A stretch of DNA of 64,000 bases from Candidatus Methylacidiphilales bacterium (GCA_041287705.1 JBGGNE010000021.1:12282-76281); one strand, 5' to 3'; numbered from the stretch's first letter, positions 4,421-57,367 are shown. Numbers and translations: made by a program. Notes: generated from the sequence alone by a model not told the origin.

Positions 4421-5173
4421 ATGATGTCCGGCATTGATTGGAAGCTGGCGGGTAACCTGGCGATCCGCGGCAAGTTTGCCACCATCCTGCGTATCGCCGG
4501 CAGCAAGCTGGAGGCGTACCGGGTGGAAGATCGCCCCGCCATGGAACGCATGAACGAGGTCTGCTTCGGCTTCTCCAAGCCGGTGCACTGGAACTTCTTT
4601 CGCTGGGTGATGCGTACCCATCCCTGCCCGCGCATTCTCAATCTGGGAGTATATCAGGGCCGCGACATTGCCTATATGGCCCACGCCAAACTGGCGGCTC
4701 TGACCAGCGAAACACCCAACGCCGCGTTCACTGATCCCGAGTGGAGCATCATCGGAGTGGATATTTTTGACGGAGATGAGTCTGCTTCAACCGCTCCCGG
4801 TGAACCGGCCTCCCCCGGTCAGCAATTTGAAGGAGTTGCGCGCCCGCGCCTTTCGCTGGCCGAGAATAATCTTCGCAAAGCCGGGGTGGAAGATGGGCGT
4901 GTTAAACTGCTGCGCGACACAGACGTCAATTATCTGCGCACCAGCCCGCGCCAGTACGACTTTATTTATGTGGATACGTCGCACTACTACAAGGATACGC
5001 TGGACCTGCTGGAGCTGGCGCGCGCGCGTCTGGCCCCTGGCGGCATGATTGCGGGGGACGACTACTTTGACCTGGGCCCATGGGGCGTGGAGTCCGCGGT
5101 GAAGAAGAGTTTTCGTCAGCACAAAGTCTTTGGCGGGTACATATGGTATGCCGCAAAAGAGGACTTTAATTAA
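4421..5173 (+). CDS. Class I SAM-dependent methyltransferase (Methyltransf_24/TylF-like)
   Basis: ILNLGVYQGRDIAYM (glycine-rich SAM loop analogue) and DFIYVDTSHYYKDTLDLLELARARLAPGGMIAGDDY. It has no CheR features. Confidence 0.6.
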   Translation: MMSGIDWKLAGNLAIRGKFATILRIAGSKLEAYRVEDRPAMERMNEVCFGFSKPVHWNFFRWVMRTHPCPRILNLGVYQGRDIAYMAHAKLAALTSETPNAAFTDPEWSIIGVDIFDGDESASTAPGEPASPGQQFEGVARPRLSLAENNLRKAGVEDGRVKLLRDTDVNYLRTSPRQYDFIYVDTSHYYKDTLDLLELARARLAPGGMIAGDDYFDLGPWGVESAVKKSFRQHKVFGGYIWYAAKEDFN

Positions 5174-5285
5174 GGCGGCGGCCAGGGAATCGAGAAATAA
5201 TTCAAGTTCCGATAAAATCTTTTGAACATTCGGCGCGCCGTTCGGTCTTACTTATTAGGTTTGGTATTCTCCTCCTGTTAGGCAG

Positions 5286-5321
5286 CAAGCGGCACCTTTG
5301 GTCGGGTGCCGCTTGTTTTTT
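5286..5321 (+). terminator. Rho-independent terminator after the methyltransferase gene
   Basis: caagcggcacc / tttggtcg / ggtgccgcttg forms an 11-bp perfect stem and is followed by tttttt. Confidence 0.75.
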
Positions 5322-5450
5322 GCCCATATGAGTAAGAAATTTCTGATAATGGGCAGAACCGCGAATGTTTTCACGCGAAATCTGTAAAAAATCCGCCCCA
5401 GAACGCCTTTTCTGCTGCCCATCGATCATTTTTGGGTGTATGCTCCCAAC

Positions 5451-6176
5451 ATGAGCCAGAGCGACAGCGATCTCTCCAACGATGCGGCGACCGGCGCACC
5501 CGTCTTTGTGCCACCGCCTTTTTGCTGGAGCAACATAGGGGTGGAAGGCGATGCCACCTGCCCCGAGCTCAACGCCATGTTGCACTGTCGCAACTGCCCC
5601 GTCTTTGCCAGGGCGGGCCGCGAACTCCTGGATCGCCCAGCCCCGGACGGCTACCTGCTGCAGTGGGTGACGCTGCTCTCCGAGCCCAAGGAAACGCGGG
5701 TACGTGCGCTTCGCCAGATCATGCTGTTCCGCCTGGGCAGCGAATGGCTGGCCATGTGCGCCACGGCGTTTCGCGAAGCGATGGACCGCACGGAAGTTCG
5801 CCGCATTCCGCACCGCACTACTGATGTACTGCTGGGACTGGTAAACGTGCGCGGTGAAGTCCAGATCTGCTTTTCCATGGCGCGGCTGCTCGGTATTGAG
5901 GAAGCGCCGGTGGATGAACGCAAGGTTAAGATGAGCTACACGATTTATAAGCGTCTGGCTGTCGCCAACAAAGAGGGCCATACGTGGGTGTTCCCGGTCG
6001 ATGAGTTTTACGGCGTGATGGAGCTGGATGAAGCTGAGGACCTGCGGCCTGTGCCTGTCACTGTCGCAAAGTCGCACGTCTCTTTCAGCCGTGGAATGTT
6101 TACGTATGAAAAGCAGAACGTGTCTCTGCTGGATGACGACCTTGTCTTTTATCAGTTGCGTAAGAATCACATGTAG
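5451..6176 (+). CDS. cheW: CheW-like coupling protein with Cys-rich N-terminal extension (WspD-like)
   Basis: The CheW domain is IMLFRLGSEWLAMCATAFREAMDRTEVRRIPH...LLGLVNVRGEVQICFSMARLLG. The N-terminus carries C-x11-C-x8-C-x2-C (FCWSNIGVEGDATCPELNAMLHCRNCPVF). The start is ATG 5451 or GTG 5436. Confidence 0.85.
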   Translation: MSQSDSDLSNDAATGAPVFVPPPFCWSNIGVEGDATCPELNAMLHCRNCPVFARAGRELLDRPAPDGYLLQWVTLLSEPKETRVRALRQIMLFRLGSEWLAMCATAFREAMDRTEVRRIPHRTTDVLLGLVNVRGEVQICFSMARLLGIEEAPVDERKVKMSYTIYKRLAVANKEGHTWVFPVDEFYGVMELDEAEDLRPVPVTVAKSHVSFSRGMFTYEKQNVSLLDDDLVFYQLRKNHM

Positions 6177-6246
6177 ACGCGTCTATCCTGTCCGGCTTTT
6201 GCCTCTTCCTTCGTTGTATTTAACTTTTACCTGAACTTTAACGGCA

Positions 6247-9200
6247 TTGAGCACCTACTCCTCATCCTCTTCTTCGTCCATGGGCGGTGATGACTCGTCC
6301 GGATTTTCCATGCTGGAGCTCTTTCGTGCCGAAGCAGAAGGCCAGACACAGACGCTGAGCGAGGGCCTGGTAGCGCTGGAGACAGATCCGAATCCCGGCG
6401 CTCTTCTTGCCGAAATGATGCGCGCGGCCCACTCTCTGAAAGGCGCCGCCCGCATTGTGGGGCTGTTGCCGGCGGAAAGCGTGGCTCACGTCATGGAGGA
6501 CGTGTTTGTTGCCGCACAGGATGGGGCTGTAACCCTGGGGCCGGCCCAGGTGGATGATCTGCTGGTTGCCGTGGATTTTCTGACCAAACTTCGCACACTA
6601 CAGGAGCACGAAATCGAAAGCTGGAAGGCGAGCGTCACGGGCGAAGTCGCTGTGTTGGAAGCCCGCCTGAAAGGCCTGCTGGAGTCCGATTCAGCCGCCA
6701 CATCTCAAAGCCAGCGTGTCCTGGCCAAACAGCGTGAAGCAATTCAGGCGAAGGAACACGCGGAGTCGGAAGTGCCGCCGGAGAATGCTGCGGATACAAC
6801 GTCTTGGGAACCAGTTCCGGAATCCCCCGTATCGCTGGCAACTCCCGCGATTGCCGGGGGAGATAATCGCGACAATGCGCTGGAGAGCGGTGAATTCTCT
6901 CTGATGGGGCTTTTCCGTGAAGAGCTGTTGAAGCACTCGACAAAGCTGGCGGAATGCATCCGCCTGTCGGATGAAGCGCACGATCCGTTGCATGCCGGCG
7001 ATCAAGGCCTGGGCAAACGGGATATCGCGCTGCAACAGGAGATGATTCATGCCGCAGCAGCCATAAAGGCCTCGGCCCAGATTGTGGAGTTTGTTGAAGT
7101 GCAGGAGCTTGCGGGATCCATGGAGCAGGGACTGACGCGCTGGAAGGCCGCGGGGCTGGATCTGGCTGCGCAACGAGCCACATTGGTTAGAATGGCGCTT
7201 CAGTTCCTCCAGGAGATCGCCAAATGCAAGGATGCCGACATGGGTGCGCTTGTGGAGAAGAAACGCGCTGCCATGACGGAAGTGGCCCATCGCCTGCGAA
7301 CGCCACAGACTGACTCCCGGCCGTCAGAGTCGAATCCTGCTTCCGCTAAAGCCCCCTCCAAAGTAGCAGCGCCTGCTTCTGCCACGACTTCCCCTGCTCC
7401 CATTCCCGTTCGCGCCCCGCCCTCCATAGTACAGGCATTAAAGGTAAAGGCAACCGCCGCCGCAGGCGCTCCCAGCAGACAGGAGGCAGTCGGATCCCAG
7501 CAGCATCCCCATCATGCGGCAGGCCCACAGTCGATTGCCGCACAGCATCTTAACCGAATCTCAACAGAGACGCGCGATACGCACTCACGGGAAGTCGCCG
7601 CTGCAATGGCCCCGCGTAACGAGGCTACAGTGCGCATTTCGGCGGATTTGCTGTCCAGCCTTACCGGTCTGGCAGCGGAAATACTGGTCGGTGCGCGGCA
7701 GTTGGAGCCTCTGGCAGCGCGGCTTACAGCTTTTCGCCAGGAGCAGATTCGCCTCGCTTCACTTCTGGCTCGCATTCAGTCCGGAATGGTGACGAGCGAA
7801 GGCGTGAAGATGGGGCTCACTCCGGGAGAACAGTCTGCCAACGGACTGGTCCAGGAAGCGAACGGTACGGAGGAGCAATCCTACTATTCAGGTCGTGAGA
7901 AAGGGACTTCATATGTCCCTTCATTCACTTCCGCGACATCAGCCCCCTCGCAAGGGACTTTTTCACCCGAATCCGCCGCATGGTTCGCCGCCGAAGGCAA
8001 AATGGATGGGGTGGGAGGCATGCCAGGCAATACCATCACCAGCATGGGTGAAGGAACCGCTTTTCTGCCTCCGTTGCCTGGTTTTCCAGGCTCGCATGAT
8101 TCAGGTTCCGCGCACAATTTCAGCTCAGGTGCATCAGCCAGTGCTTCGGTATCCTCAGTATCTACGGCCGCTTCCGCGGATTCAAGCGCGTTGGGGGCTC
8201 CCATTAACATGCGCGGGCCTCGCGGCTATCTGATCGCGGAGCTTACGCGGACCATGAACGCCAATAATGAGATTCTGGCGGCCTGGATGCAGGAGTTCCA
8301 GGTCTATATGCATCGTTTTGGCAATACGGCAGATCGCCTGTATCAGGACGCCCTGGCCACCCGTATGCGCCCCTTTGGTGATGGCACGCATGGTTTCCCC
8401 CGGCTGGTTCGCGACCTTGCCCGCCAGCTTGGGAAGAAAGTGCGCATGCAGATTCTGGGCGAGGAAACCAAGGTGGATCGCGAAATCCTGGAGAAACTGG
8501 AAGCTCCCCTCACCCATTTGATCCGTAACGCTCTGGATCACGGTTTTGAAACTCCTGAAGAACGCCTCGCTCTTGGCAAGTCCGAGGAAGGCATGTTGCG
8601 CCTGGAAGCCCGTCACAGAGGCGGCGTGCTTGTCGTCACCCTGACAGATGATGGCCATGGCATCAATATCAACAGCCTGCGCGCCAAGGTGGTAGAGCGC
8701 GGACTGGAGACAGCCGAGGTGGTCTCGCGTCTAAGCGAAGCCGAGGTCATGGAGTTTCTGTTCCTCCCGGGCTTTTCGACTGCCGAGAAGGTAACCGATG
8801 TCTCCGGGCGCGGCATTGGTCTGGATGTCGTCCGGCATGTAGTGCAGGTGGCGGGCGGTTCGGTCAATGTCCACGCCAAGGAAAACGCCGGCTGCACTTT
8901 CCAGATCAGCGTTCCGATTACGCGCTCGGTGATTAAAGCACTGCTGGTACGTGTGGCGGATGAACCTTACGCCCTGCCGCTGGCTCGTATAGATAAGACG
9001 GCGCGGGTACGACAGTCAGAGCTTGGCTCCATGGAAGGCCGCCTCTATCTGAACTGCGCTTATTACGGGAATGTAGGTCTCGTGTCTGCCCAGGAGATCT
9101 TCAAGCTGCCGGCCAATCTGCCGCCGCAGGCCAGCGCCGACGTCAACATCGTGGTAATCAGCGATCGCATGAACCGATACGGGCTGGTGGTGGACGAGTT

Positions 9201-9777
9201 TATCGGTGCCCGTGATCTGGTAGTCCGACCGCTGGACGCCCGACTGGGCAAGGTGCCGGATATCAGCGCAGCCAGCGTGATGGATGACGGCAAGATCGCA
9301 CTGGTGGTGGATGTGGACGACGTAGTGCGATCCATCGACAGCATGCTGAGCGGCGGCGGATTGCGCAAAGTACACCAGGCGGAGGCGATTGCGGCTCCCA
9401 AAGCTCGACGAATCCTGGTCGTCGATGACTCCTTTACGGTGCGGGAAGTGGAACGTCGTCTGCTGGAAAGTCATGGCTACACCGTGGAGGTGGCTGTCGA
9501 TGGAATGGAAGGCTGGAACGCGGTGCGCAGCTCAAATTTTGATCTGCTGATCACCGATGTGGATATGCCGCGCATGACGGGTATTGATTTAGTGCGCAAT
9601 ATAAAAGAGGATAACCGCCTGAAACAGCTCCCCGTCATGATTGTCAGCTACAAGGATCGCGATGCCGACCGCAAGGAAGGCTTCGAAGCGGGCGCTGATT
9701 ATTATTTCCCGAAGAGCAGCTTCCACGACGCCCGACTGGTCAATGCCGTGGAAGATCTGATAGGTAAGGCGGTATAA
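6247..9777 (+). CDS. cheA: Hybrid CheA-type histidine kinase with C-terminal receiver (WspE-like): HPt, second HPt-like segment, split dimerisation region, HATPase, CheW-like P5, REC
   Basis: HPt: MMRAAHSLKGAARIVGL. Second HPt-like segment: MIHAAAAIKASAQIVEF. ATPase: LTHLIRNALDHGFE, TDDGHGIN, FLPGFSTAEKVTDVSGRGIGLDVV. P5: IKALLVRVADEPYALPL. REC: RILVVDDSFTVRE...DLLITDVDMPRMTG...YFPKS. The start is TTG 6247 or ATG 6280. Confidence 0.9.
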   Translation: MSTYSSSSSSSMGGDDSSGFSMLELFRAEAEGQTQTLSEGLVALETDPNPGALLAEMMRAAHSLKGAARIVGLLPAESVAHVMEDVFVAAQDGAVTLGPAQVDDLLVAVDFLTKLRTLQEHEIESWKASVTGEVAVLEARLKGLLESDSAATSQSQRVLAKQREAIQAKEHAESEVPPENAADTTSWEPVPESPVSLATPAIAGGDNRDNALESGEFSLMGLFREELLKHSTKLAECIRLSDEAHDPLHAGDQGLGKRDIALQQEMIHAAAAIKASAQIVEFVEVQELAGSMEQGLTRWKAAGLDLAAQRATLVRMALQFLQEIAKCKDADMGALVEKKRAAMTEVAHRLRTPQTDSRPSESNPASAKAPSKVAAPASATTSPAPIPVRAPPSIVQALKVKATAAAGAPSRQEAVGSQQHPHHAAGPQSIAAQHLNRISTETRDTHSREVAAAMAPRNEATVRISADLLSSLTGLAAEILVGARQLEPLAARLTAFRQEQIRLASLLARIQSGMVTSEGVKMGLTPGEQSANGLVQEANGTEEQSYYSGREKGTSYVPSFTSATSAPSQGTFSPESAAWFAAEGKMDGVGGMPGNTITSMGEGTAFLPPLPGFPGSHDSGSAHNFSSGASASASVSSVSTAASADSSALGAPINMRGPRGYLIAELTRTMNANNEILAAWMQEFQVYMHRFGNTADRLYQDALATRMRPFGDGTHGFPRLVRDLARQLGKKVRMQILGEETKVDREILEKLEAPLTHLIRNALDHGFETPEERLALGKSEEGMLRLEARHRGGVLVVTLTDDGHGININSLRAKVVERGLETAEVVSRLSEAEVMEFLFLPGFSTAEKVTDVSGRGIGLDVVRHVVQVAGGSVNVHAKENAGCTFQISVPITRSVIKALLVRVADEPYALPLARIDKTARVRQSELGSMEGRLYLNCAYYGNVGLVSAQEIFKLPANLPPQASADVNIVVISDRMNRYGLVVDEFIGARDLVVRPLDARLGKVPDISAASVMDDGKIALVVDVDDVVRSIDSMLSGGGLRKVHQAEAIAAPKARRILVVDDSFTVREVERRLLESHGYTVEVAVDGMEGWNAVRSSNFDLLITDVDMPRMTGIDLVRNIKEDNRLKQLPVMIVSYKDRDADRKEGFEAGADYYFPKSSFHDARLVNAVEDLIGKAV

Positions 9778-9901
9778 GCTGCCCAGCCGCCAGGCGCCAC
9801 GGTTGCTGCTTCGGCAAAATCTGTCGCCCATTCGTTCCTTCACTTTCCACCATGCCCATGTTCTTCTCTCACCCGAAAGCGCCCCGCCCGCTCCGATCCG
9901 A

Positions 9902-10942
9902 ATGAAGGTAGCCATTGTAAATGACATGGCTTTTGCCGTCGAGGCACTGCGCCGCGTGGTGGCCGCCACACCGCACTACCGATTGATATGGACCGCCCAC
10001 GACGGTGCAGAAGCCGTGGAGAAATGCCGTGCCGAGCGGCCGGACATGATCCTGATGGACCTGATCATGCCGACCATGGACGGAGTGGAAGCCACGCGCC
10101 GCATCATGCGGGAGTCGCCTTGCACCATCCTGATTGTCACCGCCACCGTGGACCGTAATACAGCCCGCGTGTACGACGCGCTGGGGTACGGTGCCGCGGA
10201 CGCCGTTGATACACCCACGCTCGACTTTGATGGCAGCATGGAGGGGGCCGCGCAGCTCATCCGCAAAATGGACAGCCTGCGTATACTGGCCTCGAGCGGC
10301 GACGCGATTGCCCAGCGCACCCGCCTGATGAAAGGTTCTCGCCGCCTCAGCGCGGCGACACCGCAGTTCCCCATCCTTGTCGTGGGTTCTTCGACTGGCG
10401 GACCGCAGGCGCTCGCTTCGATCTTTTCGGCACTGCCGCGCGATTTCCCTGCTGCAATCGCTGTCACCCAGCATGTGGATCACCACTTTGTGGATGGACT
10501 GGTGCACTGGCTGCAGGATCAGTCACAGCTCCGTATTCAGATGGCCAACCCAGGTGACGCGCTTGAGCCGGGAAAGGTCCTGGTTGCGTCGCGCGAGGAG
10601 CACCTGGCTATTCGCTCGGACCGGACGGTCTATTATACCGGCGAGCCTTCAGAAACGCCATATCGACCCAGTGTCGATGTGCTTTTTCGCAGCGCTGCCT
10701 CCTGCCGCGGCACCCGGTTGTGCGGAGTGCTGCTGACCGGCATGGGCAAAGACGGCGCTGCCGGTCTGCTGGACCTGAAGCGCGCCAATGCCTTCACGAT
10801 AGCGCAGGACGAGGAAAGCTGTGTGGTGTACGGTATGCCGCGGGCAGCTGTGGAAATGGGCGCCGCGAAGGAAGTGCTGTCCCTCGACCGGATTTCCGCA
10901 CGCCTGATGCGTTGGGCGGAAAACACCCTTGTCGGGGAATAA
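9902..10942 (+). CDS. cheB: Protein-glutamate methylesterase with N-terminal receiver (CheB, WspF-like)
   Basis: MKVAIVNDMAFAVEALRRVV...DMILMDLIMPTMDGVEATRRIM is the REC domain. VVGSSTGGPQAL...VTQHV...LTGMGKDGA carries the methylesterase Ser/His/Asp regions. I chose the start at internal ATG 9902. Confidence 0.9.
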   Translation: MKVAIVNDMAFAVEALRRVVAATPHYRLIWTAHDGAEAVEKCRAERPDMILMDLIMPTMDGVEATRRIMRESPCTILIVTATVDRNTARVYDALGYGAADAVDTPTLDFDGSMEGAAQLIRKMDSLRILASSGDAIAQRTRLMKGSRRLSAATPQFPILVVGSSTGGPQALASIFSALPRDFPAAIAVTQHVDHHFVDGLVHWLQDQSQLRIQMANPGDALEPGKVLVASREEHLAIRSDRTVYYTGEPSETPYRPSVDVLFRSAASCRGTRLCGVLLTGMGKDGAAGLLDLKRANAFTIAQDEESCVVYGMPRAAVEMGAAKEVLSLDRISARLMRWAENTLVGE

Positions 10943-10991
10943 AAATTACGCTAAATGCTTTAGCAGCACCTATTTTATTACGATATTAAGT

Positions 10992-11160
10992 TTAGGAGTC
11001 GCTGCCGAATAACCTATAGAACTTGGAGTGATGATTTTGAGATGAGAGCAAGGCGGGATGAAGGGAGTGCATGAGAATAACGCTCGACCTGAATTCCAAC
11101 GAAGCTATCGCTCAAAAGCGACGCTCCAAGTCCTATAGGTTATTCGGCAGCGACTCCTTA
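10992..11160. mobile_element. MITE-like palindromic element, copy 1 (163-bp element 10995..11157 flanked by direct TTA/TTA)
   Basis: The arms are GGAGTCGCTGCCGAATAACCTATAGAACTTGGAG (10995..) and its complement CTCCAAGTCCTATAGGTTATTCGGCAGCGACTCC (..11157), pairing at 33 of 34 positions. The central ~105 nt is about 90% identical to the second copy at 46418..46582. TTA is present at 10992-10994 and 11158-11160. Confidence 0.7.
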
Positions 11161-11213
11161 GCGGCGTTAAATAGAATTATCTTTCTCACTGCAACATTAT
11201 CTCACAACAAACT

Positions 11214-12434
11214 GTGAAAACTGATCCTCTTCCCGCTACACCGCGCAGTGAGTTCCGCCAGCATGCCATTAAGGTATTTCTTATTGATGATCAGCTGCTG
11301 ATTGGCGAGGCGGTGCGCCGCATGCTGGCCGGAGAGCCAGGCATTGAGTTTAAATTCTGTAGCGACCCCGCCAAAGCAGAAGCCATGGCCGTAGAGTTTC
11401 AACCCACGCTTATCCTGCTGGATCTGGTAATGCCAGGCATTGATGGCCTGACCATGGTAAAGACATTTCGTGCCAATCCCGAAACACTGCAGATACCGCT
11501 CATTGTGCTCAGCGCCAAGGAAGAGCCCAAGATCAAAGCCGAAGCATTCGCCATCGGAGCTAACGACTACCTGGTGAAGCTGCCTGACAAGATTGAGCTG
11601 ATAGCGCGTATTCGATATCACTCCAATGCTTACATCACCCTTCTCCAGCGCAATGAAGCCTATGAGGCCCTGATGTGCAGCCAGCGCGCCCTTGCCGCGG
11701 AGCTTCAGGAAGCCGCCGAATACGTACGCTCGCTGTTGCCCGCGCCGATGATAGGGTCCATCACCACATCGTGGAAGTTTTTCTCCTCCACAAGCCTGGG
11801 TGGCGATGCTTTTGGCTACCATTGGCTGGATGATGACAATTTTGCAATTTTTCTTCTGGATGTGTGCGGACATGGCGTGGGCGCTGCCCTCCTCAGCGTT
11901 TCCATCATGAATTCCATCAAGACACGGCCTCTTCTGACCGTGGATTTTCATCAGCCCAATCAGGTGCTGAAGGCGTTAAATGCCGCCTACCCCATGGAAA
12001 AGAACAATAACATGTACTTTACCATGTGGTATGGAGTTTATAACAAGACGAGCCGCAAGCTGACCTACAGCACGGGCGGCCATCCACCCGCTGTGATGAT
12101 TTCAGGCAATCCGGGCACTCAGGGTGACGGCCCCAGCCATATCGAAATGCTTCGCACGAGGGGTATGATGATCGGCGCCCTGATGATCTCCGACTTTGAG
12201 AACGACGAGACGGAAATCCCGGCCGGCGCGCGTCTTTTTGTCTTTAGCGATGGGGCCTACGAAGTTAAACGTCCCGGTCGAGAGATGATGGAGCTGGATG
12301 AACTGGTCGAAATCCTGGTTCCGGACCCCGGCGACAGCACCAAACTGGACATGGTTGTCGACGAAGTAAGGCGCCAGCAGGGCCACGATAATTTTGTTGA
12401 CGACTTCTCTCTGCTCGAAATTCGATTCGAATAG
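11214..12434 (+). CDS. Response regulator with PP2C/SpoIIE-type Ser/Thr phosphatase output domain
   Basis: REC: KVFLIDDQLLIGE...LILLDLVMPGIDG...VLSAKEE...DYLVKLPD. PP2C/SpoIIE: GGDAFGYHWLDDDNFAIFLLDVCGHGVGAALLS...LFVFSDGAYE...DDFSLLEI. GTG start. Confidence 0.85.
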   Translation: MKTDPLPATPRSEFRQHAIKVFLIDDQLLIGEAVRRMLAGEPGIEFKFCSDPAKAEAMAVEFQPTLILLDLVMPGIDGLTMVKTFRANPETLQIPLIVLSAKEEPKIKAEAFAIGANDYLVKLPDKIELIARIRYHSNAYITLLQRNEAYEALMCSQRALAAELQEAAEYVRSLLPAPMIGSITTSWKFFSSTSLGGDAFGYHWLDDDNFAIFLLDVCGHGVGAALLSVSIMNSIKTRPLLTVDFHQPNQVLKALNAAYPMEKNNNMYFTMWYGVYNKTSRKLTYSTGGHPPAVMISGNPGTQGDGPSHIEMLRTRGMMIGALMISDFENDETEIPAGARLFVFSDGAYEVKRPGREMMELDELVEILVPDPGDSTKLDMVVDEVRRQQGHDNFVDDFSLLEIRFE

Positions 12435-12469
12435 TGAGATAGTAGTAGCAAAAATAGGGAGAAGATAAC

Positions 12470-12871
12470 ATGACCACAAATGACAATCAGTTTATCGATC
12501 TTATCCAGCTACTACTAAGTGATACAGAGAAAGAAGCCGCAGTCGTTTTATTAAAAGAACAACCAGAGCTGCTCGAAGCAAGGAACTCGCGTGGGATGAC
12601 GGCGCTTATGGAAGTGAGCCTGCTGGGAAATGCGGAAGCCGCTGAATTTCTCATCCAGAGCGGCGCGCAGGTGAACGCCAAATCGGACAAAGAAGGCCGC
12701 ACCGCGATGCACTTTGCCGCCGAGCATGGCCATGTGGATGCGTACTGCATCCTTAAAGACAATGGCGGCGATGATACGCAGCCGGATATCAAACGCGATA
12801 CGCCCCGCAATGTGCTGGATTGGTATTTCTCCCCCGTAGGCTCCGCCATGCGGGCCGCCAGGGAGAAATAG
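12470..12871 (+). CDS. Ankyrin-repeat protein
   Basis: RGMTALMEVSLLGNAEAAEFLIQSGAQVNAKSDKEGRTAMHFAAEHGHVDAYCILKDNGGD has the G-x-TALH...G...LL..GA motif repeated. It starts 35 nt after the REC-PP2C gene, with gggaga upstream of the ATG. Confidence 0.8.
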   Translation: MTTNDNQFIDLIQLLLSDTEKEAAVVLLKEQPELLEARNSRGMTALMEVSLLGNAEAAEFLIQSGAQVNAKSDKEGRTAMHFAAEHGHVDAYCILKDNGGDDTQPDIKRDTPRNVLDWYFSPVGSAMRAAREK

Positions 12872-17668: not shown

Positions 17669-20600
17669 TTACGGATTATCCGCAGGCAGATCTCGACGAT
17701 ACAAGCCTGTACGAGGCTCGAAGGTGTAGCGCAGGAACATGAACGCGTTCAGTTCGTCGTAAGAAGCGCTCTTGGCGTAGCTCAGCAAGCCGCCAAACTG
17801 CCAGTGATCGCTCAGCAGCATCACGCCCTTTACGCGGGTGGTCATGACGATTGAGGTCGATTCCACACCTTCATACGTGCGTCCGTCCGGATCCAGCGGC
17901 AGAACAGGGCTCTCGCTCTGCTTGTTTGTTTGCATACCTCCCGCCAGGTAACCTTTCACCAGGTAGCGCTTGCCTTCTTCCGTCAGGAAGTTAACAGACA
18001 TCACGCCCTGCAGAATGTAATCCGGGCTGAAGTAACCACCATGGCCCACCGTGTAGTGGCTCAGGTTTTTCTGAAAGACTTCACCCGATACACCCGGCCC
18101 GATGGAGAAGAACTTGAACCCGGGAATATTGAGATTCTTCGAGAGCCCAAGCGTGGCGCTGGCATGTGTGTTGTCGTCCACATCCACACCGGTCAGGTAA
18201 TCCGCCTGGCCGTTCATGTAGACGCCCCAGCCGCCGCCAAACTCGGTATAGCGCTCGCCGCGAACACCAACTCGAATCACACGGCCCCAGCCTTCGCCCG
18301 TGTAAGGATCCTGCATACCGGTGTACGACAACAGCGATTCCTTAACGGACTCCGAGAAGAGCTCCGCGGACCAGTAGCCATCCGGAATCTGCTGGATCAT
18401 GCCCAAATGCCATGTAAGTGCAGGCATTACCTCACCACCCAGCGGCGTCAGTCCCAGGTCGGCGTAGTACGTCGTCCAGCCTTCGCGACGCCAGCTGAGG
18501 CGGGGCTCCAGCACAGTATACTGCGTCTTGGGGCTTTCGAATTCGCCAGGTGGCGCAATGAGGGGCGCAGAGCCAATCAGAGCACTGTTCTCACGAAAAT
18601 TACCAGCGTCCAGATTAATAATCTTTGCCTCGAACATCACGTCATCCAGCCCGGGCAGTACCAGATTATACTGGGCCAGAGGAAAAGTCGTTGCGCTCAG
18701 TTTGCTGGTACCGGAGTCACCGGACTTCTCACGAATGCCCAGACCTCCAACAATGTTCTTCGTATCGACATTCTTCAGGCCGGGGATATTCGGATCGAGA
18801 TTATGACCTGCAATTGGCAGGCCGCGATCCACGTATTCCTTCGCGGTCTCGGTACGATACAGCTTGGCAAAAGGCCCGCCCAGTTCACGGGACAAAGTGC
18901 TTAGCTTGTCATACTCACCCAGATTCTTCAGGCTGTAATACAGACCTTCGGCCAGATCCGACCGAGGGTTCAGGCGGTACAGCTTCTCAAACATAGGCGC
19001 GGCTTCGGCGTAGCGCTGCAGGTGGAACAGATTCCACGCCTTCACGGTCATACCGCCGATATCCAGACGCGAGTAGCTCTGCGCTTTATCCAGCATGCTC
19101 AGGCTGTCCTTGTAGCGGTTCGATTTTTGCGCTTCTTCGGCCTGGCCTACCCAGTCGTCGGCAATTTTCCTTCGCGCCATTCCAGCACCCTTGCCGGCGT
19201 TATCGTTCTGGTGATCCCATTTCTGGGCTTTCTCGAACCAGACCAGGGACTCCTCGTAATGTTTGTCGTCGTAGAGACTCCACGCCAGAGGTAGTGCCGT
19301 GTTCAGATCCTTTTCCTTATCCACCGCGGCAGCCTGAGTGCGATCCTGCGACTGGCGGATTTTCGAGGCACGATCCTTGGAGTAGGTCGGCAAAAGCTTC
19401 TTGAGAGTGGGATCCAGTGTTTCATACTGGCGCACAGCGGCCTCCGCTGCAGGAAAGTCGCTCGACTTCACGTAGCTTAATACCAAACCCTTGGCGGCGA
19501 CAGCGTTGGTCGTATCCCACTCCAGCAGACGCTGAAACCACGTTGTGGAATCAGCGAAACGCTTTGCATCGTAGTAAGCCCACGCAAGGCGCAGTCCCAA
19601 GCCGATATCCTTGTTTTCCACCAGTTTGGCCAACAGTTCCTCCCCACCAGGCGCCATCATCTTGTTCACAAGCGCCGTCTGAGCGCTGGGCACCAGTCCG
19701 GCCAGTTGCGGATCCAGTGCACTGTACTTGGCAGCAGCAGCTTCCGCGCGGGTAATCAGATTCAGCTTCACCAGGCTGACAATAAGGCCCTTGGCCGCTA
19801 CAGCATTCTTGCTGTCGTACAGGAGCGCCTTCTCAAACCAGGGTAATGCATCGCTTGTCCGTTCGTCCTCAAAAAGAGCCCAGCCAAGCTGCGCAGCAAG
19901 TTCGGTGTCTTTATTATCTTCCACCTTTTTACGTGCGGCGGTACCGGCGGGAGTGTTCTTCTTCATCTCCTCCACCTGGCCCTTGTAGGCGGGCGGCACC
20001 AGCTTGATCAGCAACGGATCAAGCGCGGCATACTTCAGCGCATCCTTTTCGGCTTCGTCAAACTGGTTAAGCGCAACACGGCATACTACGACGCCCTTGG
20101 CTGCCACGGGATTCTGATCATCCCACGCCAAAATTTTCTGAAACCACGGCAGCGCCTCGGCGGGCCGCTTATCGTCGTAAAGACTCCACGCCAGCTTCAG
20201 GGCCATGCCCACGTTCTTGTCGATTTCAAGCTGCTTGCGCGCCATCTCTCCTTCGGGACGCATTAACTGCGATACCTGTTCTTCGGCGGAAATGGGTACC
20301 AGTTTTTCCAGCAAAGAATCCAGGCTGGCGTAACGCTGCGCCATGTCTTTGGCTTTTTTCAGCTCGCCCATGCCAACATGGCTAAGAACGACGCCCTTGG
20401 CCGCACCCGCGTTCTGCGCATCCCACACAAGAACACGTTCAAACCACGTCAGTGCATCGGCGTAGTGCTTGCCTTCGTACAAAAACCAGCCGTAACGCAT
20501 AGTCATCGTGACGTCCTGCGTATCTTCCAGTTGCTTGCGAGCCGAAGCTGCATCAGGCCCGGTCAACTGCTTCCACAGAGTGTCCTGGTACGCTTCTTCC

Positions 20601-20824
20601 GGTGTGCGCGGACGGTTCGAATTCTTATTGGTGGTGGGAGACGACGGGATTTCCGTGTCCTGGGCCTGCTGCACATAAAGATCCTGTGCCATCCCCTGTC
20701 CGCTGGTCATCAGCAGCCCCGCTAATGTGGCAAGACAAAGCGCAACACGACGCGCTCCGGCTTTGCGGCCGAGGCGCGATGTCATCTTCGTCCAGTGCAT
20801 AAGGGGAAGTGAATTCCGGGTCAT
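17669..20824 (-). CDS. bcsC: Cellulose synthase operon protein C-like: signal peptide, five ~100-aa TPR-like modules, C-terminal outer-membrane beta-barrel
   Basis: The N-terminal signal is VALCLATLAGLLMTSGQGMAQ. The repeated module is ...LAWSLYDDK...ALPWFEK.L.WD..N..AAKG... The C-terminus has alternating beta-strand character and ends ...NAFMFLRYTFEPR.... An ATGA overlap links it to the upstream GH8 gene. Confidence 0.75.
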   Translation of the reverse strand: MTRNSLPLMHWTKMTSRLGRKAGARRVALCLATLAGLLMTSGQGMAQDLYVQQAQDTEIPSSPTTNKNSNRPRTPEEAYQDTLWKQLTGPDAASARKQLEDTQDVTMTMRYGWFLYEGKHYADALTWFERVLVWDAQNAGAAKGVVLSHVGMGELKKAKDMAQRYASLDSLLEKLVPISAEEQVSQLMRPEGEMARKQLEIDKNVGMALKLAWSLYDDKRPAEALPWFQKILAWDDQNPVAAKGVVVCRVALNQFDEAEKDALKYAALDPLLIKLVPPAYKGQVEEMKKNTPAGTAARKKVEDNKDTELAAQLGWALFEDERTSDALPWFEKALLYDSKNAVAAKGLIVSLVKLNLITRAEAAAAKYSALDPQLAGLVPSAQTALVNKMMAPGGEELLAKLVENKDIGLGLRLAWAYYDAKRFADSTTWFQRLLEWDTTNAVAAKGLVLSYVKSSDFPAAEAAVRQYETLDPTLKKLLPTYSKDRASKIRQSQDRTQAAAVDKEKDLNTALPLAWSLYDDKHYEESLVWFEKAQKWDHQNDNAGKGAGMARRKIADDWVGQAEEAQKSNRYKDSLSMLDKAQSYSRLDIGGMTVKAWNLFHLQRYAEAAPMFEKLYRLNPRSDLAEGLYYSLKNLGEYDKLSTLSRELGGPFAKLYRTETAKEYVDRGLPIAGHNLDPNIPGLKNVDTKNIVGGLGIREKSGDSGTSKLSATTFPLAQYNLVLPGLDDVMFEAKIINLDAGNFRENSALIGSAPLIAPPGEFESPKTQYTVLEPRLSWRREGWTTYYADLGLTPLGGEVMPALTWHLGMIQQIPDGYWSAELFSESVKESLLSYTGMQDPYTGEGWGRVIRVGVRGERYTEFGGGWGVYMNGQADYLTGVDVDDNTHASATLGLSKNLNIPGFKFFSIGPGVSGEVFQKNLSHYTVGHGGYFSPDYILQGVMSVNFLTEEGKRYLVKGYLAGGMQTNKQSESPVLPLDPDGRTYEGVESTSIVMTTRVKGVMLLSDHWQFGGLLSYAKSASYDELNAFMFLRYTFEPRTGLYRRDLPADNP

Positions 20825-21963
20825 TTGGCAAGATCCGATGCGGCTGCCTTCGCTAAAAGGAGCAATGTTGCAGAGTAATAGCTATCTCCTTCGACCATTC
20901 CCGGCCATCTGATGGAAGCCAGCGGCCTCTTTTCCAGAACGGCCTGAGCCAGCAGGTAAATAGCCTCTTCCCCGGGAGGTGCGGCGTAATCAGCAGGTTC
21001 ATCGTCATCCAGGCCCACAGTGGCGACTGGTCGGCCTCCCACTTGCTTTTCCGACCAGAACTCCACAAACGGCTTCAGCAACGCCTCGTCGCTGGCCTGT
21101 CCGGCCCAGGCCAGGTAGAGTGGAATACGGAACGCGTTGTAGCCGAATTCCTGGGGAAACTGCTCTTTGGGCGGCATCCCTACCGCGCCGATTTCATCCA
21201 CGAAAAGCCAGTCCGGAGGCAGCTTCCACTTACCGTATTTCGCAATGCCTAACAGCCGGCGACCGCTGGAATCCAGCGCCGTCCACACTGTGTTGCCCGT
21301 CAGCTCCCTAAATTCATGAAACGCAGGGAAGATCCAGTACGAAAGATTCACGATCGTGCGCCCCCCTTCTTTCTGGAAACCGATCAGCCCAGGGACCAGC
21401 AGCATCCCGTGCGGCGACTGCACCGTCAGGCGCTCGGCCAGTGCAAGTGCAAACGGCTGAGCCTCAGCGGCATATTTGGAATCCGGCCAACGCTTCGAAG
21501 CGCGGATCAACGCCCATGCGACCAGCACTTCGCCATCGCTGGCGTTATTCGGGTCATCCACATGGCCACCCGTGCCGGAAACGTCGGGAATCCAGCTCCA
21601 GCTCAGCAGGCCATCCTGTCGAGCCAGGTGAGTCTTCGTCCAGCCCCACATTTCGTCAAAGGCGGCCCGGTCTCCATAGTGCTCTGCCAGCATCATGCCG
21701 TAGCCCTGACCTTCTGTATGGCTTTTATTACCGTTGCCGGTATCGACAATGCGACCTTCGGGGCGCAAATATCGGGCCTTATAGGTGGTCCATTCGCGAT
21801 CGGTAACCGTTCCGGCTTTCTCGCCGGAAAAACAGCCCCAGAAGAACGACGGAATGCCGAGAATGCACATCATAACAGGCAATCCCCAGACACGTCCGCG
21901 CCGAGGGCGCTGCCCAGGGTGGGAGGCGGGGATCGGGAAAGAGGTGGCGCTCTGATGAACCAT
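20821..21963 (-). CDS. bcsZ: Glycoside hydrolase family 8 endoglucanase (BcsZ-like)
   Basis: GNKSHTEGQGYGMMLAEHYGD (GH8 catalytic-Glu block), ...ASDGEVLVAWAL..., and the signal/TM segment WGLPVMMCILGIPSFFWGC. I chose the start at ATG 21963 (MVHQSAT). Confidence 0.85.
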   Translation of the reverse strand: MVHQSATSFPIPASHPGQRPRRGRVWGLPVMMCILGIPSFFWGCFSGEKAGTVTDREWTTYKARYLRPEGRIVDTGNGNKSHTEGQGYGMMLAEHYGDRAAFDEMWGWTKTHLARQDGLLSWSWIPDVSGTGGHVDDPNNASDGEVLVAWALIRASKRWPDSKYAAEAQPFALALAERLTVQSPHGMLLVPGLIGFQKEGGRTIVNLSYWIFPAFHEFRELTGNTVWTALDSSGRRLLGIAKYGKWKLPPDWLFVDEIGAVGMPPKEQFPQEFGYNAFRIPLYLAWAGQASDEALLKPFVEFWSEKQVGGRPVATVGLDDDEPADYAAPPGEEAIYLLAQAVLEKRPLASIRWPGMVEGDSYYSATLLLLAKAAASDLAK

Positions 21964-22472
21964 GACGCCGGGGTTTTTACGATTTAAAGCGTGAAAAGTA
22001 AAGAAAATGAGTAACCCTTTCAGACAAATAATGTTATGACACATGTATAAGAGCAAATGTATAAAAAGAAAACAAGACAGCTCCGCCGCCAACCTTCCGA
22101 CACTGAAAGGTCATGTCTACAACTGGCCCGAAATTGAGCTAAACTTTGGGCTAAAGGATACGACAACTCATCAAAGACACTCACAAAATATAGTATGAAT
22201 TACGATATTCCGCCCTTTAGATACAGTCCGATTGCTTCAATGGTACTGCATCTCAATGGAGGATGATCAACAACAACTCCTGCAAATGAAATCGGTTAAA
22301 TATCGACAAAAGCCGACTTCCAATTAATCTCATCATTGTCGTACCCAACACGAAACCTTTTCCGCGTCTCTGAGGAAGATCGTGCGTAAAGCCTTAGTCA
22401 AAAGATATTAGCCGATATTTTCCTTGACCCGACACCACTCCTTCCTGCTATTAACTCCGCACCCCTATCCCC
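21964..22472. promoter_or_regulatory. ~510-bp AT-rich divergent control region between bcsZ-bcsC and bcsA-bcsB
   Basis: There is no credible ORF, GC is markedly lower than in the flanks, and it lies between two divergently transcribed halves of the bcs locus. No specific promoter boxes could be assigned. Confidence 0.4.
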
Positions 22473-24734
22473 ATGAATTACTTTCAAGAGGCTTCCGCAT
22501 GGTGGACCAAATGGAATGAGAAGATCATTTTCTGGATGTGGGTAGCTGCGGCTGCGGCAATCGCCTGGCTGGCGATTATTCCAACTGATACGTACGCACA
22601 GCTCATTACGGCGTCGCTGATCATGACTGCGCTCATGGTAGCGCGCCGCTTTAATATCGCAGGTGCCATGCGCGAGGTGTTTCTGTTCCTCGCCGCTTAC
22701 CTTTCGCTGCGTTACTTCTTCTGGCGTACATTTAATACGCTCGTCTATTTCGATCCCATCAGCTTCGTGCTGGCCCTGATGCTCTATGGTGCGGAGATTT
22801 ACGGCATTGTCATTTACCTGCTGGGATTGTTCGTCAATATCTACCCCCTGGATCGCGTATCACCCAAGCTTCCCGATAATCCTGATGAATGGCCGGGCGT
22901 TGATATCTTCATTCCGACATATAATGAAGATCCCTCCATTATTGAGCTAACGCTTTTCGCAGTAGTCCAGCTGGATTATCCCAAGCATCGCTATACCGTT
23001 AATCTATGCGATGACGGCGGTACGGATCAGAAATGTAACGACGCCGTTCCTGCAAAAGCCGCAGCCGCACGTGCCCGGCGCAAAGAGCTTTCTGAGATGT
23101 GTGACCGCATTGGCGCCAAATACTGCACGCGCGCCAAGAATCTTCACGCTAAAGCCGGTAACGTAAACTCGGCCTTCAATGCAACCAGTAATGATCTCGT
23201 CCTCATTCTTGACGTGGATCACGTTCCTACCCGTGACATTCTTCGCCGGACTGTAGGGTTGTTTCTTGAAGATCCCAAACTCTTCCTCGTCCAGACACCG
23301 CACTTTTTCCTTAACCCGGATCCTATCGAAAAGAATCTTGATACGTTCAAGGTAATGCCGAATGAGAGCGAGATGTTCTATAGCGTCATCCAGCGCGGTC
23401 TCGACTTCTGGAATGCCGCGTTCTTTTGCGGCTCTGCGGCAGTACTACGACGTAAGTACCTAGCGGAAGTGGGCGGCATTAGCGGTGACACGATTACGGA
23501 AGATGCGGAAACGGCGCTGCTTCTGCATTCCCGAGGCTATACCAGCGCGTTTATTCGGCAGCCTATGGTGGCGGGTCTTTCTCCGGAAACGCTCGGCGGA
23601 TTCATGGTGCAGCGCAGTCGCTGGGCCATGGGTATGGTGCAGATCTTCCTGCTTAAGAATCCTATGCTGCTCAAAGGCTTAAACCTTGGCCAGCGATTGT
23701 GTTATCTTAACTGCTGCTTCTTCTGGTTCTTTGCGTACGGGCGGCTTGTGTACATGGTGGCCCCGCTGGGCTTCCTTATCCTGGGCCTTAAAGTCTATAA
23801 CGCTTCGGTAATGGAATTCTTTGCATACGCCATACCGCATATGCTGGCGGCCATGTTTATATCGGACTTTCTGTATGGAAGAGTCCGGTGGAGCTTCATT
23901 TCCGAGCTTTATGAACTGATTCAGGCGCCATACACAATGCCTTCCATCATTCAGGTGCTGATGAACCCAAGAGCGCCCACCTTTATTGTGACGCCTAAGG
24001 GTGAACAGCTGGATAAGGACTTTATATCGCCGTTAGGTACTCCATTTTATACACTGCTGTTCGGTACTATTATTGGTCTTTGCTTCGGTCTTTATAAATA
24101 CATCCATTACCCCATGGATAGATCAGTTATCGTTATTACGATGGCGTGGTGTACCCTTAACCTCGTCATGATTTTTGCCGCTATCGGGGTTATGTTTGAG
24201 CGAAGGCAGAGACGCGCCTGGCCGCGCATCCCGGAAAACCTTAAGGGCACGCTGGAAGTGAATGATCAGATAGAAAAAGTCACCGTGGATGAAGTTGCCA
24301 TGGGTGGTCTGCGTGTACTGATCAGTCTTCCGCTCTATCGCAAATTAAAGCCTGGCCAGGCCCTGATTCTTAATGTCGAATCCAGCCAGACGGATCCGCT
24401 GATGCTGACCTTCCACATGAAGATTCTGAAAAAGCGAATCGTCTACGGAGTTCCGCACCTCATTATCCAGTTTGATTACCAGAATGATGCCGAGCGCAAA
24501 TCAGCCGTGGTACTCATTTATGGCGACAGCGACCGCTGGCTTCGCTTCCAGGAAGTCCGCATGACCAAGCTGGGTATTACGGGCAGTCTGGGATTCATTA
24601 TCCTGCAGGGCGTAAAACATTCCTACGCACACTGGTCCTACGCTACCGTACTGTTCTTCAAATGGATTCTGGAAAGCATCAAGAATTATACCATGTCCTG
24701 GCTACGTTGGTTTGGCAGACTGGCGCTGGGTTAG
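22473..24734 (+). CDS. bcsA: Cellulose synthase catalytic subunit (GT2 + C-terminal PilZ domain)
   Basis: VDIFIPTYNED, LCDDGGTD, AKAGNVNSA, LDVDHVP, TITEDAETALLLH (TED) and QRSRWAMG (QxxRW) are all present. PilZ: RRQRRAWPR ... VDEVAMGGLRV. Confidence 0.92.
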   Translation: MNYFQEASAWWTKWNEKIIFWMWVAAAAAIAWLAIIPTDTYAQLITASLIMTALMVARRFNIAGAMREVFLFLAAYLSLRYFFWRTFNTLVYFDPISFVLALMLYGAEIYGIVIYLLGLFVNIYPLDRVSPKLPDNPDEWPGVDIFIPTYNEDPSIIELTLFAVVQLDYPKHRYTVNLCDDGGTDQKCNDAVPAKAAAARARRKELSEMCDRIGAKYCTRAKNLHAKAGNVNSAFNATSNDLVLILDVDHVPTRDILRRTVGLFLEDPKLFLVQTPHFFLNPDPIEKNLDTFKVMPNESEMFYSVIQRGLDFWNAAFFCGSAAVLRRKYLAEVGGISGDTITEDAETALLLHSRGYTSAFIRQPMVAGLSPETLGGFMVQRSRWAMGMVQIFLLKNPMLLKGLNLGQRLCYLNCCFFWFFAYGRLVYMVAPLGFLILGLKVYNASVMEFFAYAIPHMLAAMFISDFLYGRVRWSFISELYELIQAPYTMPSIIQVLMNPRAPTFIVTPKGEQLDKDFISPLGTPFYTLLFGTIIGLCFGLYKYIHYPMDRSVIVITMAWCTLNLVMIFAAIGVMFERRQRRAWPRIPENLKGTLEVNDQIEKVTVDEVAMGGLRVLISLPLYRKLKPGQALILNVESSQTDPLMLTFHMKILKKRIVYGVPHLIIQFDYQNDAERKSAVVLIYGDSDRWLRFQEVRMTKLGITGSLGFIILQGVKHSYAHWSYATVLFFKWILESIKNYTMSWLRWFGRLALG

Positions 24735-24777
24735 TATTCACTTTGCAATAGTAAACACACACTACTTCATACACGTT

Positions 24778-56164: not shown

Positions 56165-56188
56165 TCTATCCGGCAGGCTGACGGTGGT

Positions 56189-56653
56189 TTAAGACTGAAG
56201 AGCAGGCACGTCGGGGCCCAGCACAATGCCCAGGATTCCCTTATGGGATTCCCAGTTGATGTCATAGGCAAACTGCGGCATACCGTCGGGGATGGGAAGG
56301 TCTTCGCCTTTTGATATGGCGATGGGAAGCGACACGCGGAAGCTGCTTCCAAAGTGCTCACGCGCATTGCTGGTCACGATGCTGGCGATTTCTCCCACGG
56401 CATCGCGGATCATCTCCGAGTCCTGCTGCTGCTCGCCAAGGCGGGTCAGCAGAGTCTTGGCCATTGGCCGTGTAAAGGAGATGTAGATCCAGCCGGGGGA
56501 GCTGCCGCTAAAACGGATAAAGCCGGTGTAGTCGAGCAGGCGCGGCGTGCCGAACTCGATGGATGGGCTTCCCAACTGGGGAGAGCAGCGCGTGGAATGC
56601 GTGAAGTAATTGCAGATGAGTTGTACGAAAACCGCAAGTTGGCCGTCGTCCAT
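56189..56653 (-). CDS. CheX-like protein, paralog 2 (catalytic Asn replaced by Ser)
   Basis: YTGFIRFSGSSPGWIYISF...DAVGEIASIVTSNAREHFGSSFRVSLP fits D-x3-E-x2-S-x18-P. I place the start at ATG 56653 (MDDGQLAV). The ORF-track GTG 56860 would add a Cys-rich, low-GC 69-aa extension. Confidence 0.6.
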   Translation of the reverse strand: MDDGQLAVFVQLICNYFTHSTRCSPQLGSPSIEFGTPRLLDYTGFIRFSGSSPGWIYISFTRPMAKTLLTRLGEQQQDSEMIRDAVGEIASIVTSNAREHFGSSFRVSLPIAISKGEDLPIPDGMPQFAYDINWESHKGILGIVLGPDVPALQS

Positions 56654-56881
56654 AAGAGTGTCCTCCGCTGGTAAGTGAGTAATACTATACAGGCTTGGTC
56701 TGATATTGCCAGCCGGCACGAGCCCGGAGAGCCTGCATTTTTCAGACTCCGGATTCCGGAATATGCCGGCGCAATAGTTCAACTGCCCAATAGAGGATCG
56801 ACACTTCGGTTGATAAACGTAAGCATTTGTGCAACAAAACAACACGATTTGAGTACCCACTTCAGCTAAATCATACTCCCC

Positions 56882-57337: not shown

Positions 57338-57367
57338 AGGGGCGTCTTCTTAAGGGGTGGCGATCAA

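Follow-up and report, generated by a model that had tools for sequence, protein, structure and literature searches.

The Wsp system is the textbook surface-sensing route to cyclic di-GMP (c-di-GMP) and biofilm formation, and, to our knowledge, nearly all work on it has been done in Pseudomonas and Burkholderia. Here we analyze a Wsp-like operon from Candidatus Methylacidiphilales bacterium, a member of the Verrucomicrobiota. In this operon, the receptor half of the system is missing, and the output regulator is predicted to be a PP2C-type phosphatase instead of a c-di-GMP synthase. The operon lies in a 64-kb stretch of DNA (GCA_041287705.1, JBGGNE010000021.1:12282-76281), which we call the window; positions are counted from its first letter. 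We compared it with relatives from the 80 best genomic loci and from 32 metagenomic loci, some of which are referred to by labels such as L088.

The canonical Pseudomonas operon, WspA-B-C-D-E-F-R, encodes a methyl-accepting chemotaxis protein or MCP (WspA), two CheW proteins (WspB and WspD), CheR (WspC), a hybrid of CheA with a receiver domain or REC (WspE), CheB (WspF), and the REC-GGDEF output regulator WspR. The window operon shares the D-E-F-output order, the cysteine motif of WspD, a hybrid WspE, WspF, and the receiver and stalk of the output protein. It differs in lacking WspA, WspB, and WspC, both in the operon and within ~70 kb, in having a PP2C domain instead of GGDEF, in an extra ankyrin gene, and in its verrucomicrobial host.

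A Wsp core with an exchanged output protein has a precedent in the "H-system" of Burkholderia, where the hybrid kinase/regulator WspH stands in place of WspR (Kessler et al. 2021, PMC8552884). The output of the H-system is a histidine kinase/receiver, however, whereas the output in the window is a phosphatase. Also, that survey reported no wsp operon without WspB or WspD, whereas the window operon lacks WspB.

Chemosensory clusters have been linked to serine phosphatases before. F7 "stage 1" clusters carry anti-sigma antagonists and a serine phosphatase (PMC7184735), and Che1 of Shewanella acts with CrsR/CrsA, a partner switch that controls RpoS (PMC9855816). The genetic coupling of a chemosensory cluster to a serine phosphatase and anti-sigma antagonists is the point of likeness. 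In contrast to the window operon, these are F7-class systems with a separate CheY, CrsR is a REC-PP2C-kinase, and the receptors are in the cluster. In a catalogue of clusters of the alternative cellular functions (ACF) class with CheR-TPR (Muñoz-Martínez et al. 2012, PMC3447774), "Ser/Thr phosphatase family 2C" is one of the outputs to which response regulators are fused; the passage on phosphatase outputs there cites Table S1 of Wuichet & Zhulin 2010. Complete Wsp operons with a PP2C output are known only through such catalogue entries, in which they appear as ACF clusters whose response regulators are Ser/Thr phosphatases (PMC3447774). Our search of the literature for experiments on a Wsp or ACF system that ends in PP2C turned up catalogue-level mentions only. 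The earlier note on this DNA had implied that the combination was new. It is in fact widespread and already catalogued; we found no experimental characterization in the literature.

A Wsp core with a predicted phosphatase output

The operon consists of five co-oriented genes on the plus strand, which encode a WspD-type CheW, a hybrid CheA-REC (WspE), a REC-CheB (WspF), a REC-PP2C protein, and a small ankyrin protein (Table 1). Positions, order, and Pfam domain content all agree with the earlier note, which had proposed a Wsp-class core in the D-E-F-R order. Identical proteins are encoded in the metagenome assembly GCA_035460925.1 and in an ENA assembly of the same organism.

For protein-by-protein comparison, we used the canonical Pseudomonas operon (L124). 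The window's WspD is 32% identical to Pseudomonas WspD (over 215 amino acids, E = 1e-34) and has no match to Pseudomonas WspB. WspE is 49% identical in the kinase-CheW-REC part and 57% identical in the histidine phosphotransfer (Hpt) domain, and WspF is 48% identical. As far as homology shows, the proteins align with Wsp and not with another class, such as the flagellar (F) one.

Residues 6-160 of the REC-PP2C protein are 60% identical to Pseudomonas WspR. The best matches among solved structures are also to WspR (3i5a and 3bre, E ~ 1e-56, 64% identity), with the alignments confined to residues 15-160. The WspR-type receiver and helical stalk run to about residue 160-173, and across comparisons this part is 60-66% identical to WspR, which implies that a conserved stalk received a different output domain. 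By homology, the output regulator is a WspR whose catalytic domain has been exchanged, with a predicted RsbU/SpoIIE-type PP2C domain replacing GGDEF. The rewiring away from c-di-GMP synthesis that the earlier note had proposed fits these results.

The receiver residues D25, D26, D70, S100, and K122 are invariant in an alignment of 20 orthologues. So are the PP2C motifs (GGD198, D216-VCGHG, SD346G, and D396-D397), which include all of the metal-binding aspartates. These motifs align with those of RssB and of the RsbU-like protein Rv1364c from M. tuberculosis; the GD, DxxGHG, SDG, and DD motifs are common to the window protein and to the PPM phosphatases RsbU, SpoIIE, SiaA, and RssB. The phosphatase looks active.

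The AlphaFold2 (AF2) model of the REC-PP2C protein has a mean confidence (pLDDT) of 86 and consists of the receiver, a single 48-residue helix (126-173), and a PPM fold. With this model as the query, Foldseek found RssB, SiaA, SpoIIE, RsbX, and Rv1364c at E values of 1e-12 to 1e-25, as well as WspR. In a structure-sequence search, RssB from P. aeruginosa matches at full length (E = 1e-24). RssB (PDB 3eq2 and 3f7a) also combines a receiver, a helical linker, and PP2C, and is the best full-length structural match. However, it is only 24-25% identical, the receiver and stalk in the window are WspR-like, and RssB is not in a chemosensory operon.

A cyanobacterial contig encodes a protein (L006 14800-15939) in which this WspR-type receiver and stalk carries a class III nucleotide cyclase (Guanylate_cyc). 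This fusion ends an operon of CheR-TPR, MCP, WspD, WspE, and WspF, in which cheB is split into two open reading frames (ORFs). Given the GGDEF, PP2C, and class III cyclase versions, one stalk carries at least three alternative outputs. Coiled-coil linkers have been described as shared, exchangeable regulators of PPM phosphatases and GGDEF cyclases (PMC12143880), and this natural domain swap illustrates that idea.

The open reading frame for WspE opens at a TTG codon at 6247; gene callers in public assemblies start at 6310, which gives 1155 amino acids. The protein has an Hpt domain (HSLKG), a degenerate second Hpt domain, low-complexity linkers, a dimerization region, HATPase, CheW/P5, and REC, in that order. 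The phospho-acceptor motif HSLKG is kept. In the second Hpt-like segment (6865-7315, or residues ~186-335), alanine replaces the histidine (AAHSLKG versus AAAAIKA). This segment scores 68, while shuffled sequences score 31 on average (standard deviation 5), and it is conserved in the closest relative, strain LW23. We considered whether this second Hpt domain without histidine was an adaptation to receptor loss and ruled that out, as multiple Hpt-like repeats are common in WspE from complete operons. Multiple Hpt domains with REC are typical of CheA from the ACF and type IV pilus (Tfp) classes (PMC10782961).

WspF begins with MKVAIVNDMAFAVEALRR and matches NCBIfam NF009206 at 437 bits (the cutoff is 342). 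The Ser-His-Asp triad of its methylesterase domain is intact (motifs GSSTGG, QHV, and GMGKDG).

WspD has a CheW domain preceded by an N-terminal extension of ~90 amino acids. It has more than 1384 homologues, many of which are annotated as WspD by JGI. The extension contains the motif C-x11-C-x8-C-x2-C (C25, C37, C46, and C49; window 5523-5597, residues 25-49). The fuller motif C-W-x2-I-G-V-x-G-D-x2-C-P-x-L-x5-H-C-x-N-C is present in 117 of 120 WspD homologues. The cysteine motif is invariant in an alignment of 31 sequences that includes Pseudomonas WspD, whereas WspB-type CheW proteins lack it. It looks like a metal- or Fe-S-binding knuckle. The conserved motifs of WspD have no known function according to the 2021 survey (PMC8552884). 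In the AF2 model, the CheW domain is confident, but the motif region has a pLDDT of only 58-64 and gives no structural clue.

The missing receptor half and the Wsp-PP2C family

Several kinds of searches for the receptor half were negative. In Pfam scans that covered every ORF of 150 or more amino acids in the window, nothing matched MCP or CheR; tblastn against the window with Wsp-type MCP and CheR as queries found nothing; and family hidden Markov models (HMMs) from 55 MCPs and ~60 CheRs had no match in the six frames of the window, even at E ≤ 10. We also found no second CheW gene (WspB) in the window. A second assembly of this organism adds ~9 kb of upstream sequence, which has no MCP, CheR, or other chemosensory gene, so the missing MCP-CheW-CheR block is not there either. 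Searches of the six frames of the window with HMMs and jackhmmer found no genes for STAS or RsbW-like kinases. The absences that the earlier note had reported (MCP and CheR from the 64 kb, and any STAS or anti-sigma target nearby) were thus borne out.

The additional ~9 kb encodes an ADP-ribosylglycohydrolase, an acetyltransferase, and a Ser/Thr kinase with HDOD. The last of these (L090 14260-16212, on the opposite strand, ~9 kb upstream of the operon and outside the window) is a Hanks-type Ser/Thr kinase fused to HDOD. It could supply phospho-Ser/Thr substrates; we did not see conserved linkage.

The strong terminator reported upstream of the operon is real: its hairpin has a folding energy of -29.7 kcal/mol (z = -5.9), none of 200 shuffled sequences folds as well, and a run of six T follows. 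This predicted terminator closes the Methyltransf_24 gene and marks the 5' boundary of the operon. The Methyltransf_24 protein might be thought to substitute for CheR, but we ruled this out: the terminator lies between, and the gene is absent from LW23 and from all related loci.

The closest relative is the cultured isolate Verrucomicrobia bacterium LW23 (GCA_003054695.1), which has the same four-gene operon starting at WspD; in both genomes, some five upstream genes are missing from the operon. In LW23, the operon is in a different neighborhood, with other upstream genes than in the window. In the closest outgroups (L088 and L089), which have the same REC-PP2C, the 5' half is complete, with MCP-CheW-CheR directly upstream, and this supports a core cut off from its receptor half. 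The simplest reading is that the receptor half was lost once, before the lineages of the window and LW23 split. Across all of the genomic and metagenomic loci, the exact WspD-E-F-PP2C form was seen only in this lineage.

Between the window and LW23, amino-acid identity and the ratio of nonsynonymous to synonymous rates (dN/dS) are 79% and 0.12 for WspD, 68% and 0.15 for WspE, 78% and 0.13 for WspF, and 81% and 0.09 for REC-PP2C, with dS at 1.1-1.7, where synonymous sites are near saturation. By these estimates, all four genes are intact and under purifying selection and are not decaying. Because the truncation is common to LW23 and dN/dS is 0.09-0.15, selection has acted since the loss.

More broadly, the REC-PP2C protein has 7977 relatives in the databases at E ≤ 1e-10, of which the top matches, from several phyla, are 55-64% identical. 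With one genome scanned per species, relatives were encoded in at least 587 genome stretches. Orthologous genes are 45-64% identical to the window protein, or up to 81% if LW23 is counted. The hosts include Verrucomicrobiota, Planctomycetota, environmental Chlamydiales, Lentisphaerae, Kiritimatiellia, and Acidobacteriota, as well as Delta-, Gamma-, and Alphaproteobacteria, Elusimicrobia, and Ignavibacteria.

The predominant gene order in the 80 genomic loci is MCP, small CheW, CheR, WspD, CheA-REC, CheB, and REC-PP2C, which by homology is the full Wsp order with a phosphatase in the place of WspR. MCP and CheR accompany the core in at least 47 of these loci (many others are cut by contig ends), and a WspB-like small CheW lies between MCP and CheR in 45. 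Complete operons, such as L088 and those of Desulfoferrobacter suflitae (L022) and Zavarzinella formosa (L074), resemble the window in having REC-PP2C after WspD, WspE, and WspF. They differ in having MCP, CheW, and CheR (often CheR-TPR) upstream and sometimes RsbW-like or STAS genes, all of which are lacking in the window and in LW23.

Clustering of the neighboring genes showed that an RsbW-like serine kinase (HATPase_c_2) and a STAS protein recur beside REC-PP2C. In iterated searches, 22 of the 80 loci had an RsbW-like gene, a STAS gene, or both at a distance of no more than 10 kb, and several metagenomic loci have them as well. In the nearest outgroup, Verrucomicrobia bacterium Tous-C9LFEB (L088), whose REC-PP2C is 64% identical, a single co-oriented block encodes two HATPase_c_2 proteins, STAS, MCP (dCache), CheW, CheR, WspD, WspE, WspF, and REC-PP2C. 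These neighbors make the partner-switching style of output that the earlier note had suggested plausible. The same receiver and stalk driving PP2C, often beside RsbW/STAS genes, would be a widespread second major output of Wsp, and such operons would link a chemoreceptor array to partner switching.

Reduced forms occur in other lineages. Chlamydiales loci have CheW-CheR-WspD-WspE-WspF-PP2C without an adjacent MCP, and more reduced forms include WspD-CheA-PP2C (L032), CheW-CheA-PP2C (L067), CheB-PP2C pairs, and solitary REC-PP2C genes. Since there are several of these forms, truncation recurs in the Wsp-PP2C family. By these comparisons, the window locus is a truncated member of a family that is widespread and known from sequence, and what is particular to it appears to be the loss of the receptor half, which it shares with LW23.

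The chlamydial operons are of interest as a Wsp-like phosphatase pathway in obligate intracellular bacteria. In four metagenome-assembled genomes (MAGs) of Chlamydiales/Parachlamydiaceae (L010, L019, L025, and L053), the order is CheW-CheR-WspD-CheA-REC-CheB-REC-PP2C, and no MCP is detectable in the upstream flank. The L032 locus, which is from Chlamydiae, has WspD-CheA-REC-PP2C only.

Our scan of metagenomes for close relatives of REC-PP2C found nothing closer than 63% identity, so it yielded no further member of the truncated lineage and no further association with an ankyrin gene.

Proposed signaling by the truncated operon

Our best explanation of the locus, which we consider probable though far from certain, is the cytoplasmic core of a Wsp-family (ACF-type) phosphorelay with a phosphatase output and a partner-switch target, whose input and target genes are unlinked. 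WspE would autophosphorylate on the Hpt histidine under the control of a receptor-WspD complex. The phosphoryl group would be transferred to D70 of REC-PP2C, and to WspF for feedback. Phosphorylation of the receiver would rearrange the dimeric stalk and switch the phosphatase on, as in the model for WspR and for PPM phosphatases of the RsbU/RssB type (PMC12143880). The phosphatase would then dephosphorylate the phospho-STAS protein of a partner-switching module, which would act on a sigma factor or another effector. Partner switches also control targets other than sigma factors, such as the cyclase SiaD (PMC9239204), so the final effector of REC-PP2C could be of either kind. The receptor, any CheR, and the STAS/kinase pair of this lineage would be encoded elsewhere in the genome, or the input would come via the receptors of another system.

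Four points weigh against this explanation. There is no receptor, CheR, STAS, or RsbW gene within ~70 kb of sequence. STAS or RsbW genes are close by in only about a quarter of the related loci, and because of this, the substrate of the phosphatase is one that we infer. Third, the cognate CheR was perhaps lost rather than moved. When we used the WspC-type CheR from L088 as a query, no protein from LW23 or Methylacidiphilales was among the best 120 matches. The same search found five close orthologues at 55-68% identity, and then identity drops to 40% or less. Because a close orthologue from LW23 or Methylacidiphilales would have ranked in the first ten, the cognate CheR may be truly lost, although this evidence is soft, and the retained CheB would then have no obvious partner. 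Finally, the 271-bp spacer between cheB and the REC-PP2C gene, with its very stable hairpin, could uncouple the phosphatase from the upstream genes.

The truncated form thus presents a puzzle: CheB is still under selection although neither a receptor nor CheR is linked to it. That CheB is catalytically intact speaks for a methylated receptor somewhere, and the apparent absence of the cognate CheR speaks against one. As LW23 is a cultured isolate, this puzzle is accessible to experiment.

Alternatively, the module might work without a receptor. WspD-WspE would be a soluble sensor kinase, with the four-cysteine motif perhaps as a redox or metal sensor, and WspF would be a phosphate sink or act on a substrate other than a receptor. 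The lack of MCP and CheR in ~70 kb, the result of the CheR search for LW23 and this organism's MAG, the purifying selection on the four genes, the retention of the cysteine motif, and the smaller subsets in other lineages (L032 and L067) are all consistent with this. We nevertheless think it unlikely. The cysteine motif is also invariant in WspD from systems that have receptors, including that of Pseudomonas, so the motif is not an adaptation to receptor loss, and AF2 gives no confident fold for this region. The CheB triad is complete and the methylesterase domain is conserved, which a pure phosphate sink would not need. Also, the CheA kinases characterized so far are known to rely on receptor arrays. 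A self-contained cytoplasmic WspD-E-F sensor that drives PP2C, with CheB in a role other than demethylation, and that has been stable since before the split from LW23, strikes us as rather improbable.

If the preferred explanation is wrong about the target, the ankyrin protein might be a new target or adaptor of the phosphatase that replaces the STAS partner. Its gene has a AGGGAGAAG ribosome-binding site before the ATG and lies 35 bp downstream of the REC-PP2C gene, with no terminator in the gap. It is probably a real gene that is co-transcribed with REC-PP2C, and no STAS gene is nearby. However, LW23 shares the truncated operon but not this gene, which is also missing from all of the other related loci (80 genomic and 32 metagenomic). 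Also, ankyrin repeats are interaction modules of a generic kind, and the sequence gives no grounds for a phospho-acceptor motif. The protein is predicted to be small and cytoplasmic, and it seems to be an organism-specific, lineage-specific addition to the operon. The earlier note had offered it as a candidate adaptor or target. We found nothing beyond adjacency for such a role, which is unsupported because the gene occurs only in this organism, and we hold the replacement of STAS by the ankyrin protein to be quite improbable.

We are similarly doubtful that the phosphatase feeds back into the control of c-di-GMP and cellulose, via a SiaABCD-like STAS switch on a cyclase or on the downstream bcs genes, in which case the rewiring would be only indirect. 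A cluster of BcsC, GH8, BcsA, and BcsB genes is present at 17.7-27.1 kb, and the modeled PP2C domain superposes well on SiaA (TM score of 0.81-0.83, normalized to the target). SiaABCD is a precedent for the control of a diguanylate cyclase by PP2C, kinase, and STAS modules (PMC9239204). But there are no bcs genes near the operon in LW23, which is in a different neighborhood, and we saw no conserved linkage to GGDEF or bcs genes in the 80 loci.

Lastly, the operon might be a decaying remnant, a half-operon left by a deletion that no longer signals; the missing receptor half, the possible insertion between cheB and the output gene, and the range of reduced versions in other lineages would fit, but none of the four ORFs is shortened, their catalytic motifs are intact, and the truncation is common to LW23 (68-81% identity, dN/dS of 0.09-0.15), which largely refutes this idea and leaves it very improbable.

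Other features of the window

The spacer between cheB and the REC-PP2C gene is 271 bp here, whereas in most related loci the two genes abut or overlap. Both of the other assemblies of this organism that span the gap have the same length. The palindromic element that the earlier note had placed at 10992..11160 is real: it has inverted arms of 48 nt each (10994-11041 and 11111-11158) that are 90% complementary. The 271-nt spacer folds at -105.8 kcal/mol (z = -9), and there is no T-run after the element. We found no second copy of the element in the window, no match in Rfam, and no exact match to an arm in metagenome contigs. The element may be an insertion that resembles a miniature inverted-repeat transposable element (MITE), or it may be a hairpin for RNA processing or stability.

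Table 1. Features of the operon and of other parts of the window.
Feature	Position	Strand	Evidence or remark
Methyltransf_24 protein gene	4421-5173		Pfam; upstream of operon
Intrinsic terminator (predicted)	5281..5324	+	13+4-bp GC-rich hairpin, then T6
WspD-type CheW, 241 aa	5451..6176	+	Pfam CheW, E = 6e-15
WspE-type hybrid CheA-REC, 1155 aa	6310..9777	+	Pfam Hpt, HATPase_c, CheW, Response_reg
WspF-type REC-CheB methylesterase, 346 aa	9902..10942	+	Pfam Response_reg and CheB_methylest (E = 3e-60)
Inverted-arm element, 165 nt	10994..11158		48-nt inverted terminal arms
REC-PP2C output regulator, 406 aa	11214..12434	+	Pfam Response_reg and SpoIIE
Ankyrin-repeat protein, 133 aa, 3 repeats	12470..12871	+	Pfam Ank_2, E = 1e-12
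BcsC	17669-20824	-	Cellulose cluster
GH8 endoglucanase	20821-22092	-	Cellulose cluster
BcsA-like GT2	22473-24734	+	Cellulose cluster
BcsB	24712-27138	+	Cellulose cluster
Weak HTH protein	55217-56164	-	Second chemosensory-like cluster
Two CheX-like proteins	56882-57337, 56189-56860	-	Second chemosensory-like cluster
CheY-like receiver	57368-57727	-	Second chemosensory-like cluster
CheA-like kinase, Hpt and HATPase, no CheW domain	57888-60224	-	Second chemosensory-like cluster
DUF4388 protein	60334-61035	-	Second chemosensory-like cluster

A cellulose synthase cluster (17669-27138) lies 5 kb downstream of the operon. Its BcsA has no Pfam PilZ match at E ≤ 0.001, and the C-terminus holds only a degenerate RRxxRR ... 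DxVxxGG pattern. Conserved linkage of the operon to the bcs cluster is ruled out by the location of the operon in LW23.

On its minus strand, the window also has another chemosensory-like cluster (55217-61035), unrelated to the operon and without MCP or CheW, which the earlier note had omitted. Elsewhere in the window, a plus-strand gene (42785-46417) encodes a hybrid histidine kinase of 1210 amino acids with GAF, three PAS, HisKA, HATPase, two REC, and Hpt domains, which is a possible alternative phosphodonor for the orphan receivers of the region.

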